IMG/VR virus record: IMGVR_UViG_3300031853_000003
Coordinates: 91,392-155,391 of that record
Length of the DNA: 64,000 nt
From: a virus
Lineage: Duplodnaviria; Caudoviricetes
Reading direction: 5' to 3' (one strand)
How positions within the stretch are numbered: the stretch's first letter is position 1; each line of letters begins with the position of its first letter. Of this stretch, positions 6,076 to 34,098 are shown in pieces. Below the pieces are notes generated by a model, which was not told the DNA's origin, did no database searches, and was given only the letters and a program-made list of their open reading frames with translations. The position numbers and the translations under genes are program-made.

Positions 6076-6498
6076 GGGCGTGCCAGGTTTCGACGGGGCG
6101 CGAGAACAAATAAGCTACGCTAGTATGCCACCGCTAAAGGGGCAACCTAAAAATAACTGACAAAGTTGTTTCTATTCACCCCGCTGCTATTGCTGCTCTT
6201 TTCGCAAGAAAGGCTGTAGCTTAATCAGCGATTTCGGGTACCAAAACGATATGGCCTGCTACTCGACGCATATCTGAGGTTCAAGGAAGTAGTAGCATCA
6301 CAGTTCGTCATCTCTGTAAAAGATGACTGGTGGAGCGATGAAACTTTTTCATCCCTAAGAGGGTAGCTGCCCTCAAGCTTCGGCTTGAACCAAACGACGT
6401 TGACAACCCGTACACAGCTTGAAATTTGTCTATGGCGTAAGAAATGCTTATTCAAGTATTCGTTTCGGACGCGGGTTCGACTCCCGCCACGTCCACCA
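6076..6498 (+). ncRNA. ssrA: tmRNA; tag ORF 6159-6224 encodes (A)DKVVSIHPAAIAALFARKAVA*
   Basis: 5' GGGCGTG..TTCGAC and 3' GCGGGTTCGACTCCCGC-CACGTCC-ACCA with the G3:U Ala identity pair; AATAACT-GAC resume context. Confidence 0.95.
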
Positions 6499-30281: not shown

Positions 30282-30384
30282 TATCGTTCATTAGCCGAGG
30301 CAAAAGACGGTTATTGTAAAATCGTTAATTAGTGTGTAGATGACAAATCATAGTTGTCTACACACTATTTTACTGTAAGGAGAA

Positions 30385-31044
30385 ATGTATATGCCAAAAC
30401 AACACCCGTTATCTGATTTCGAGCTATCTGTTCGCAAGGCATATGGTGACGCTATCTTGCGTCTGAGATCTACTCTCGGCTGGACTCGCAGACAGCTCGC
30501 GGCCTGCACATCTCGGTCTCACAGTTCTATCAAGGACTACGAGATGAACCTCGCTGGTATGCGTTCAAATGTCATGAATCAGATCGCTCGTGCTTTCAAC
30601 TTTCCGATTTCGCGATTATTTCCTGATATCAAAGATGCATTTGATCTCAAGAAATATATCGAGGACATCGATGTGATGAACGACGAGATGCTTGCACGTG
30701 TTCGAGTTGCCGGAGGATGGATTGAACCACCTGTTATTGTTAAGAAGCTTGGGACAACTGCCGACGCTGATGCATCCGCAATCGGCTCAGATTCTACAGA
30801 ACCTTCTGAGGAGAATCCTTTCCAGATCATCGCCAAGCTGATTGATACAATCGGTGAAGTTAAACTCTGCAACACGACAGAGTCTAAGCAAGCTCCTGTG
30901 TATGGAACCTTTGCTACTTCGTATTCTATCATCGTAAAAATGCAGAATAAGAACATGATCTCCGACGACGTAGCTGTTGCCGCTAAGAAATCGCTCATCG
31001 AACACTATTCAAGAGGTGATGTTAAGTTTGACTCTGAATCCTAA
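30385..31044 (+). CDS. XRE-family HTH protein
   Basis: [13 protein letters not shown]....S.S.IKDYE. Confidence 0.75.
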
Positions 31045-32026
31045 ATCTATCAAGGCTCTGCTCGATAAAAGTATCGTCGGGCAAGACGACGCTAAGAAAG
31101 CTCTAAGCATCGCAGTCTACAATCATTGCATACGCTGCAACAATCCGTCAGCTGGTATTGAGAAATCAAACATCTTGATGATTGGACCTACAGGTACCGG
31201 CAAGACGCTGCTTGCAAAGACGCTTGCAAGTAAGTTAAACATTCCGATCGCTATTGCTGATGCAACATCTCTCACGCAGGCTGGATACGTCGGAGAAGAT
31301 GTAGAAAACTGCTTGCTGAGATTGTATCAAGCTGCAAACGGCAACCTGAATGCTGCCGAACACGGAATCTTATTCATTGATGAGATTGATAAGATAGGTC
31401 GTAAAGCTGAAAGTGCATCTATCACTCGTGATGTATCAGGTGAAGGAGTTCAGCAAGCTCTTCTGAAGATGCTTGAAGGATCTACCGTCAATGTTCCAGC
31501 ATCTGGAGGACGTAAAAGGCCTGACGGAGCTGACTACATAAAGATGGATACGTCTAACATACTTTTCATCTGCGCAGGTGCCTTTGAAGGTATCAACTAC
31601 AATAAGCCTATCACCACGTCAGAACTTCAGAAATTCGGCATGATGCCTGAATTACTTGGACGTCTTCCTGTTGTAACTCAGCTCAATCCGATGACTGAAG
31701 AAGATCTCATTCACATTCTGACTGTTCCGGAAAATTCAATCGTCAAGCAGTACCAGAAGCTATTTGAGTTGAATCACTGCTCTCTCAAGTTCGAAGCATC
31801 AGCCTTATCTTGTATAGCAGACTACGCTATGAAAAAGAAGATTGGGGCAAGAGGTCTTCGTACAATCATGGAGAAAGTCCTTCAAGATCACATGTTTGAT
31901 TTTCCAGATGCTGGATCTGTTTCTATCTCAAAATTTGATGTAATGTCGAAGTTCAGTGCTGAAATTGATGATACAGGTCTATATGCTGTAGATGTACCAC
32001 GTAACCTGAAATTCCTGAATCGTTAA
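31028..32026 (+). CDS. clpX: ClpX-like AAA+ unfoldase lacking ZBD and IGF loop
   Basis: [52 protein letters not shown]; start probably TTG 31028 (or ATG 31019). Confidence 0.92.
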
Positions 32027-32099: not shown

Positions 32100-33074
32100 A
32101 TGTCTGCAAACATTGACACTATGCTGTACGTAGGAGAGACTCCGTGGCACGGACTCGGCGTAAAGTATGACGCACCGCCCAAAACTTCAGAAGAGATCAT
32201 CAACGGTGCCTCCCTCGGCTGGGAAGTAGGCGCAGAGCCTATGAAGACAGATCTTCACGATAAGATCTACGGCTACCATGCTATCTATCGCAAAGACAAC
32301 AACGAGGTGCTCGGCGTTGTAAACAACGGCCACCCTCAGATCGTTCAGAACCGCGATACGTTCAACACCTTCAACAGAATGATCGGAAGTGATCTCGATG
32401 TTGAGACCGCTGCCAGCCTAGGACGCGGAGAAACCGTATTCGGCTGCTTCAAGATCAACGGCGGATTCAAGGTCATTGATGACGATGTAGACCATTACTT
32501 CGTCGTTCTCAACGACCATCTCCGACCCGACGGTAAGATCACAGTCCTCAACACTCCGGTACGTGTTGTATGTCAGAACACACTGTCTGCTGCGCTCAGC
32601 AACAGCGCCTACAAGCTGAGAATCCCGATCATAGATGATTTCAGCGTCAACGAGTCGATGGCCATCAAGCTCAAAGAGTCTGTCGGCACCGCTATCGACA
32701 GCCTGAATCGCAGAGCTGAAAAGATGCTCAAGATGAAGATTACCCGCTCCGAGATCGACACCATCCTCGACGAGCTGTTCCCGTACATGACAGGCTCCGA
32801 CGGAACTATGCTCGACAATGCAGCAAACATGAACCAGTCAGTTGTCCGCGATACGTTCACACAGTGCCTTGCTGTCGACAACCTCGCGAACTACAGAGGT
32901 ACTGCATGGCAGATCATGAACGCTCTGACAGACTTCACTCAGCATTATTACAAGAAGGTTGAGAAGAGCTTCGACCTCAACTACCGCATGAAGAAGCTGC
33001 CCGGCGTCGGACAGCCTACCGAGACAGATCTCGTCGCCAAGTATCTCAAGATGGCAGACAAGCTCGTCGCCTAA
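32100..33074 (+). CDS. DUF932 / TIGR03299-type phage-plasmid protein
   Basis: M.YV.ETPWHGLG, VQN, ETA.SL, TPVRVVCQNTL, GTAW..NA. Confidence 0.85.
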   Translation: MSANIDTMLYVGETPWHGLGVKYDAPPKTSEEIINGASLGWEVGAEPMKTDLHDKIYGYHAIYRKDNNEVLGVVNNGHPQIVQNRDTFNTFNRMIGSDLDVETAASLGRGETVFGCFKINGGFKVIDDDVDHYFVVLNDHLRPDGKITVLNTPVRVVCQNTLSAALSNSAYKLRIPIIDDFSVNESMAIKLKESVGTAIDSLNRRAEKMLKMKITRSEIDTILDELFPYMTGSDGTMLDNAANMNQSVVRDTFTQCLAVDNLANYRGTAWQIMNALTDFTQHYYKKVEKSFDLNYRMKKLPGVGQPTETDLVAKYLKMADKLVA

Positions 33075-33089
33075 CATACACAAAGAAAC

Positions 33090-33116
33090 AGCCGGTGGTA
33101 AGATAAACCACCGGCT
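33090..33116. terminator. Terminator between convergent genes
   Basis: AGCCGGTGGT..ACCACCGGCT perfect stem. Confidence 0.8.
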
Positions 33117-33131
33117 ATATTTATGTAAACA

Positions 33132-33902
33132 TCAATCTTCGATGAAATCAACCTGTTGTTGTAATGCTGTTCGGAGCTTCTTTTCTGCTCCTGGTAATAG
33201 TCGTTTCAGTTCCCAGAAGTCTAGACCGTATATGTCCGCCATCTCATACAGCTTATCATCTGTGAGTCTACACTCTTGAGAAACCATTTCATGTATAAGC
33301 AATTCTTCGAGCGAATTGTAATTGTCATTCATTGTATCAAGAATACTTGTGTGTTGTTTTGGAGCTTCTATAAACAATGCAGACGTTTCTAGATCTGCCC
33401 AGTACACTGTTCCGAATATGGCCTTGAGAGAGTTTAACTTATCAGCTGGTAGATTTACTTTACTGAGATCTTCGTAGCGTACTTTGCCCCAATGCTTGCC
33501 AAGCTGTGCACCTGCTTCCATACACAACGACCGTCTTACTGAATACTTGACTTCGTTGAGCTCTCGTTCAATCATCTCACCTACACGAGGTTTGAAAAAC
33601 ACTGTGAATGATAGATCCTGACGATATCCCTTATGATTCTCATCGCCTTTCCACTTGTACCACCACCAGCATTCACAAAAATGCATCAGAGCCGATTGAA
33701 ACTTATCCTCGTATGTAACAGATGAATTATGTATGTAGGTATGTGTAGCAACATATCCAAAGAACGCATAATTGAGTTCAACTATTTCATCCCGAGCATC
33801 TAAACACTTTATTCGCTGTTCTTTATCTTGTGGAAGTGAGTCATATATCTCAAGTGTTCGTTGTTTTACTTGTTCTGATTTTGATAACTTGTTATCCGCC
33901 AT
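33132..33902 (-). CDS. Divergent sigma70-family factor (candidate late sigma)
   Basis: ARDEIVELNY..YVA..YEDKFQ..SFTVFF.PRV..I resembles region 2; C-terminal EMADIYGL..KKLR resembles region 4. Confidence 0.7.
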   Translation of the reverse strand: MADNKLSKSEQVKQRTLEIYDSLPQDKEQRIKCLDARDEIVELNYAFFGYVATHTYIHNSSVTYEDKFQSALMHFCECWWWYKWKGDENHKGYRQDLSFTVFFKPRVGEMIERELNEVKYSVRRSLCMEAGAQLGKHWGKVRYEDLSKVNLPADKLNSLKAIFGTVYWADLETSALFIEAPKQHTSILDTMNDNYNSLEELLIHEMVSQECRLTDDKLYEMADIYGLDFWELKRLLPGAEKKLRTALQQQVDFIED

Positions 33903-34098
33903 ATACGTCTTTCCTTCACAATACACAAAGTACTTCGCCTAATTCTATAACGATTTCCATTCAATTATTCATCAATTTGTTGGTTTTCGCCAAAGTTTGA
34001 AGAATTGGCCAAAAACGCCAAAGTTGATAGATTTCATCAGAATCATAAAATTTTTCTTATGAAATTCAAATGAAAATTATCCATCTTCCTACAATAAA

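Follow-up and report, generated by a model that had tools for sequence, protein, structure and literature searches.

ClpX is a textbook protease motor powered by ATP, with IGF loops that define its connection to ClpP. On its own, ClpX acts on MuA transpososomes and TrfA dimers. HslU has no IGF loop and docks HslV by its C-terminal tail. An S. aureus ClpX variant, reportedly I265E, is said to be unable to bind ClpP. A report on S. aureus describes a mutant expressing a ClpX variant that was made to separate the roles of individual ClpP proteases (PMC5603545). In E. coli ClpX, the IGF loop spans residues 263-283 with I268-G269-F270, supplies most of the buried ClpX–ClpP surface, and is inactivated for ClpP binding by I268L, F270L, or V274A; changes in this loop lower both ClpP affinity and degradation (PMC7112951). 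A second loop, the RKH loop, meets the substrate above the pore and influences specificity (PMC7112951). Yeast mitochondria contain Mcx1, the ClpX orthologue of an organism that has no ClpP. It is devoid of the IGF motif, is thought to be a pure unfoldase or chaperone, and activates its client ALA synthase by unfolding (PMC10886707).

Full-text literature searches returned no description of an IGF-less ClpX in phages, and Mcx1 was the only analogue that they returned. The concept of a ClpP-independent ClpX is already known.

The gene was found in a complete phage record of 155,391 bp with direct terminal repeats (IMG/VR). The window, that is, the whole stretch of DNA that was analyzed, is the last 64 kb of this record. 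The gene of the minimal ClpX, which has neither zinc domain nor IGF loop, occupies 31028-32026 on the plus strand (stop codon included) and encodes 332 aa from a TTG start. The ORF lister gave a span of 30977-32026. The TTG at 31028 is most likely the true start, because a Shine-Dalgarno-like GAGGTG (31013-31018, plus strand, read from the sequence) sits 9 nt upstream and P0001, a homologue with 90% identity, shares this start residue (MTLNPKS). At most 17 in-frame codons precede this start.

The protein was compared with family models and with known structures. It scored 438.4 bits against NCBIfam NF003745 (cut-off 359) and 419.8 bits against TIGR00382 (cut-off 370.75), and both matches came in two stretches split at the deletion. 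The score against the hslU model (TIGR00390) was 207.6 bits, under the cut-off of 362.45. Pfam matches were AAA_2, AAA, and ClpB_D2-small. PHROG matches were phrog_4339 at 8e-98 and phrog_5534 at 7e-29; the stripped ClpX/HslU-like phage ATPases of phrog_5534 are far more distant and were set apart by this match score. An AlphaFold2 model built with 74 sequences had a mean pLDDT of 88.6. The best Foldseek matches of the model were ClpX chains of ClpXP complexes, with E-values down to 4e-34 and TM-scores up to 0.85. Sequence and predicted fold thus both identify the protein as a ClpX.

Alignment with E. coli ClpX (MG1655, locus L176) indicated that two regions, residues 1-62 (the zinc domain) and residues 258-287 (the whole IGF loop), have no counterpart in the phage protein. 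No Pfam match to PF06689 (zf-C4_ClpX) was obtained for the minimal ClpX, and its first residue falls exactly where the laboratory construct ClpX-deltaN (residues 62-424) starts. At the second deletion, HMMER matches to ClpX chains of known structure split in two; for the P. aeruginosa ClpX chain 9ndj_F, query residue 207 was aligned to chain residue 256 and query residue 210 to chain residue 288. Only 13 residues (189-201) separate GAFEG from KFG, and no IGF, LGF, or MGF tripeptide occurs in this linker. In the alignments and the model, a collapsed 15-residue linker (31586-31630, plus strand) replaces E. coli residues ~251-295, of which the 30 residues 258-287, including the IGF motif, are gone. 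The linker was predicted to be ordered (block pLDDT 94-95). Because the 258-287 deletion spans the published loop of 263-283, the alignment indicates that the entire loop is removed together with the ends of both flanking helices. The GAF...PELLGR segment was 28-34 residues long in every short cluster parsed by motif search vs 57-59 residues in ten full-length ClpX proteins of the same list. Judged from these sequences, the loop deletion is far beyond chance.

The AAA+ module was tested motif by motif. Walker A (GPTGTGKT, residues 53-60; 31184-31207), the pore-1 loop GYVG (residues 86-89; 31283-31294), Walker B (DEID, residues 118-121; 31379-31390), the pore-2 loop RDVSGEGVQ (residues 134-142; 31427-31453), the arginine finger (E. 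coli R307; 31661-31663), and the sensor-2 motif GARGLR (residues 273-278, E. coli R370; 31844-31861) were all present, each on the plus strand. They were 100% conserved in 69 members of the short clade. Invariant positions there included G, G, G, K, and T of Walker A, D118 and E119 of Walker B, the pore-2 core with SITRDV, the arginine finger R307, and R275 of sensor-2 (R370); for GYVG, conservation was 100% both here and among 81 cellular ClpX proteins. The original prediction, made from the DNA letters, had listed intact Walker A/B, GYVG, RDVSGEGVQ, and GARGLR motifs, and every one was found. Its further claims of a missing N-terminal zinc-binding domain and of a clean IGF-loop deletion leaving about 13 residues between GAFEG and KFG were borne out by the alignments above, as was its reading of RKR in place of RKH (R162-K163-R164). 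The alignment to ClpX and HslU that it had proposed as a check came out on the side of a ClpX-derived protein (438.4 vs 359 for ClpX; hslU below cut-off).

Conservation within the clade was as strong as in cellular ClpX, with 128 vs 130 columns conserved at 90% or more. Only seven positions were fixed differently from near-invariant cellular residues: F140I, E150Q, N195S, P224A, H230R, Q233G, and G248S. Most of these fixed changes lie in the pore and RKH loops. The RKR triplet (31511-31519, plus strand) replaces the RKH motif and belongs to an RKH-loop signature that marks the clade: P224A, H230R, and Q233G in E. coli numbering. The histidine of this motif was present in 100% of the 81 cellular ClpX proteins, and arginine took its place in 94% of the short clade. 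An active translocase with altered client choice accounts for this pattern better than an inert blocking subunit would. The original prediction had named a pure remodeller or a poison subunit for host ClpX; the invariant pore loops together with the clade-specific RKH-loop changes favour an active stand-alone unfoldase.

Compared with E. coli ClpX and the NF003745 and TIGR00382 families, the phage protein shares the AAA+ fold and the layout of large and small domains. Its Walker A/B, GYVG, pore-2, arginine-finger, and sensor-2 motifs are identical to those of E. coli ClpX. It differs in lacking the 30 IGF-loop residues that form the main ClpP contact, in carrying RKR, P224A, and Q233G, and in belonging to a phage without ClpP. 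Mcx1 resembles it as a natural ClpX relative without the IGF motif, a likeness drawn from its published description. Mcx1 differs as a eukaryotic organellar housekeeping protein with ALA synthase as its client, and the phage protein also lacks the N-domain and has a clean short linker. In engineered IGF point mutants (S. aureus; E. coli I268L, F270L, and V274A), loss of the IGF contact likewise separates unfolding from degradation (PMC7112951). However, those are laboratory changes in full-length host ClpX, whereas the phage clade lost the whole loop by evolution and the state is fixed. Among other AAA+ families, HslU (ClpY) comes closest (207.6 bits), and it too is without an IGF loop and a zinc domain. 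Unlike HslU, the phage protein has no I-domain, because the 65 residues from Walker A (53-60) to Walker B (118-121) leave no room for one; it also has no conserved C-terminal docking tail, and its phage has no HslV. An HslU-like docking tail was judged absent from the variability of the C-terminal tail within the clade and from its disorder in the AlphaFold2 model. As an IGF-less motor in a genome without its own ClpP, the phage protein falls into the class of ClpP-independent ClpX-type unfoldases, with its unfoldase activity predicted from sequence.

To define the distribution of the short form, a database of 5.8 billion proteins clustered at 90% identity was searched and the best 120 clusters were taken. 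The short form accounted for 110 of them; these proteins had 268-357 aa and no zinc-finger Pfam domain, and were encoded on contigs of up to 125-219 kb. The short architecture was kept in more than 100 clusters at 57-91% identity. A tree was built from 203 sequences, comprising 69 short forms, 81 named cellular ClpX proteins, and 53 viral full-length ClpX proteins. All 69 short forms fell on one side of a single branch with an SH-like support of 99, and the branch kept a support of 98 in a second tree from which the loop columns were removed. By these trees and conservation patterns, the stripped ClpX is a conserved monophyletic phage clade under strong purifying selection. Its nearest sisters were rapidly evolving ClpX-like proteins, with the zinc domain retained and the loops already shortened. 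The cellular sequences closest to the minimal ClpX came from Bacillota (50-59% identity).

The short form was absent among the best 80 bacterial loci from a search of 185,579 species. It was also absent from 50,697 deposited phage records (INPHARED), in which the best matches were at most 53% identical and had match lengths spanning the loop. Among the best 80 loci in IMG/VR, 5 were short and 75 kept the loop. In the loop-keeping loci parsed by motif search, the loop segment had 53-64 residues and carried I/L/M-G-F.

A peptidase partner was sought by six-frame HMM searches. PF00574 (ClpP) gave no match in the complete phage genome and none in five incomplete records of related phages; PF00227 (the proteasome/HslV family) gave no match in the complete phage genome. 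Of the viral records whose ClpX keeps the loop, 25 of 47 had a ClpP-family match, some of these presumably being ClpP-type head proteases or lying in bacterial flanks; the contrast is descriptive only, as the six ClpP-less records are related to each other and five are incomplete.

HMMER was run over all of 1.84 billion cluster representatives and recovered other ClpX-like lineages with lost or short loops. Three of them had neither zinc domain nor IGF motif: P0285 (308 aa, RKH kept), P0286/P0408 (318 aa, RKH lost), and P0299 (339 aa, RKH kept), the last on a 182-kb phage-like contig. P0286/P0408 had the same phage gene order with DUF932 present. The zinc domain was kept and the IGF motif absent in P0301 (443 aa, RKN), which has two DUF932 genes within 6 kb, and in P0379 (407 aa, RKRPD), located on a 44.5-kb phage-like contig. 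P0384 (411 aa, KKN) had no IGF motif and a cysteine-pair N-terminus, a putative zinc domain. On a quick tree (FastTree, long branches), the short-loop state needed 7 changes, at least 3 of which were forced by well-supported branches; loop loss therefore seems to be recurrent in phage-borne ClpX. P0286/P0408 (L183:8001-8957) is a divergent branch of the same phage lineage as the minimal ClpX, in which RKH is replaced (IQLSSYER) and DUF932 is preceded by an inserted gene of 141 aa.

The genes around the minimal ClpX were examined. In all 12 same-clade contexts read, the order was kept as a KTSC-domain gene, a small gene, a variable slot, the short ClpX, a DUF932 gene, a convergent gene of ~260 aa, and replication genes, the last including a DnaB-like helicase and a primase. 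In the window, the variable slot holds an HTH (XRE-like) gene (30385-31044, plus strand) with weak HTH_19 and HTH_31 matches below the Pfam cut-offs and with PHROG regulator matches. The overlap of ClpX with an XRE gene, which the original prediction had pointed out, is real and measures 17 nt at the ClpX start, but outside the window both the XRE-like gene and the overlap were seen only in relatives of ~89% identity. An XRE protein as a conserved ClpX partner was rejected, with the slot occupied by unrelated genes in different sub-lineages. This slot directly upstream of the short ClpX was compared at 30385-31044 of the window and in loci L003, L083, L085, L087, and L183, and it looks like a hypervariable accessory slot in an otherwise conserved order.

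The original prediction had also paired the ClpX with an odd tmRNA tag. A tmRNA is present in the window at 6076-6498, within a tRNA cluster, and its predicted tag is DKVVSIHPAAIAALFARKAVA, ending in ARKAVA. Rfam gave a tmRNA above the cut-off in only one of five related records (G005) and none in a relative that is 84% complete. ARAGORN did not call the Rfam-detected tmRNA in L088. The functional pairing of tmRNA and ClpX thus found no support and was dropped, because an Rfam tmRNA occurs in only one of the five related records.

The conserved downstream neighbor is a DUF932 gene (32100-33074, plus strand; PF06067 at 1.5e-26), which followed the short ClpX in 12 of 12 contexts and is probably co-transcribed with it. 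The original prediction mentioned neither this neighbor nor the family-wide spread of the stripped form. The DUF932 protein was as conserved as ClpX (53-77% identity across relatives), and its invariant residues include H140, D144, R155, C158, N160, and H282. Its AlphaFold2 model had a pLDDT of 84.6. Foldseek gave no match to this model at E <= 1e-3, and the best VIA Z score, 6.7 for the TnsE C-terminal domain, was at background level. The idea that DUF932 is a hidden peptidase is unsupported by these comparisons. The papers listed by full-text search did not address the function of DUF932. Many contig sizes were common to the lists of DUF932 and short-ClpX homologues. A consensus scan, which is pattern matching only, placed a terminator-like hairpin with a 15-bp stem before the XRE–ClpX–DUF932 unit (30330-30367, plus strand) and another one, readable from either strand, at the end shared by DUF932 and the convergent gene (33088-33118). 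The convergent gene (33132-33926, minus strand, 264 aa) was present in all relatives at 56-68% identity and had no Pfam, PHROG, or PDB sequence match.

Together, the sequence comparisons lean towards the minimal ClpX being a ClpP-independent unfoldase or remodeller of specific phage or host proteins, unable to dock ClpP and probably retuned in its substrate choice. The protein would assemble into a hexamer of its own, in the manner of the laboratory construct ClpX-deltaN. The hexamer would hydrolyze ATP and would bind, unfold, and translocate clients, which would be released in unfolded or remodelled form instead of being degraded. Client choice has probably been retuned by the clade-specific RKH-loop signature. 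Clients may well be early or replication proteins, because the gene sits just upstream of the replication module and by analogy with MuA and TrfA; the DUF932 protein is another candidate client. A rather unlikely alternative is that the protein counters proteolysis, either by forming mixed rings with host ClpX that are short of IGF loops or by competing with host ClpXP for degrons, and so shields phage proteins or labile host antitoxins. The phage protein is close to Bacillota ClpX (55-59% identity), and its seven fixed changes mostly avoid known ring contacts, the arginine finger and sensor-2 being invariant, both of which would suit mixed rings. Altered IGF loops do cut ClpP affinity and degradation (PMC7112951), and phages are known to manipulate Clp proteases, an example being an adaptor-like SPO1 protein that acts on ClpCP (PMC6873191). 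However, the clade-specific changes in the substrate-selecting RKH loop point to clients of its own, and mixing would presumably require new synthesis of host ClpX during infection. Docking to host ClpP or another ring peptidase through a non-IGF element is highly improbable. The pore-2 loops, which also contact ClpP, are intact, and HslU provides a precedent for docking without an IGF loop. Nevertheless, neither the 13-residue linker nor the C-terminal tail is constant within the clade, both are without a conserved hydrophobic motif, the model shows the tail as disordered, the hslU score of 207.6 stays under its cut-off, and the phage has neither ClpP nor HslV.

DUF932 proteins are common in mobile elements. 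It is doubtful that the short ClpX and DUF932 form a two-gene module in which DUF932 is a dedicated client, adaptor, or unrecognized catalytic partner. DUF932 lies downstream even where the upstream slot differs, many contig sizes are shared by the two homologue lists, terminator-like hairpins bracket the unit, and the separate IGF-less, zinc-domain lineage P0301 has its two nearby DUF932 genes. On the other side, the contexts of the main clade all belong to a single syntenic lineage of phages, and their adjacency may be no more than inherited order, and the IGF-less lineages P0299 and P0379 have no DUF932 within 8 kb. The protein database contains more than 2000 DUF932 homologues, far exceeding the short ClpX clusters seen, and the DUF932 model is without a clear fold match. 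Also possible, though speculative, is a broader scenario in which phages and possibly other mobile elements have repeatedly made captured ClpX into protease-free motors. Here, the motor and DUF932 would be a two-part module that neutralizes host ClpXP-dependent processes (antitoxin turnover, phage-protein degradation) or activates a phage replication or establishment factor by unfolding. Finally, the loss of two functional modules could be read as the decay of a functionless remnant of a captured host clpX. This reading is scarcely credible and is already contradicted by the conservation data, as the frame is open, the architecture is kept in more than 100 clusters, and there are about as many invariant columns as in cellular ClpX.

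If the minimal ClpX is indeed a stand-alone unfoldase, these sequences suggest that phages use the bare ClpX motor for something besides degradation. A natural double deletion of N-domain and IGF loop is held under strong selection in this phage clade, and similar loop losses are seen in other phage lineages. The clade offers a natural system for asking what a lone ClpX ring does, what clients are picked by the changed RKH loop, and whether such rings serve phages to interfere with proteolysis in the host. The automatic annotation of the short forms as "ATP-dependent Clp protease ATP-binding subunit ClpX" is probably wrong in function.

A ClpX variant of Lachnoclostridium phocaeense (WP_076777866.1) was considered as a chromosomal IGF-less ClpX. 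It was rejected as a different variant, because a short AIGFG loop is retained and RKH is gone. The protein has 400 aa (L177/L179:10001-11203, LT635479.1), and its gene lies in a region that resembles a conjugative element, with TraG-like, SSB, topoisomerase, RadC, and PARP-like genes. The 312-aa gene that follows it is not DUF932. Another protein, P0241 (MCH2227926.1, 1238 aa, Candidatus Caenarcaniphilales), is annotated as "AAA family ATPase" and matched the query in four stretches (E = 6e-151). P0241 apparently holds several ClpX-like modules in one chain.
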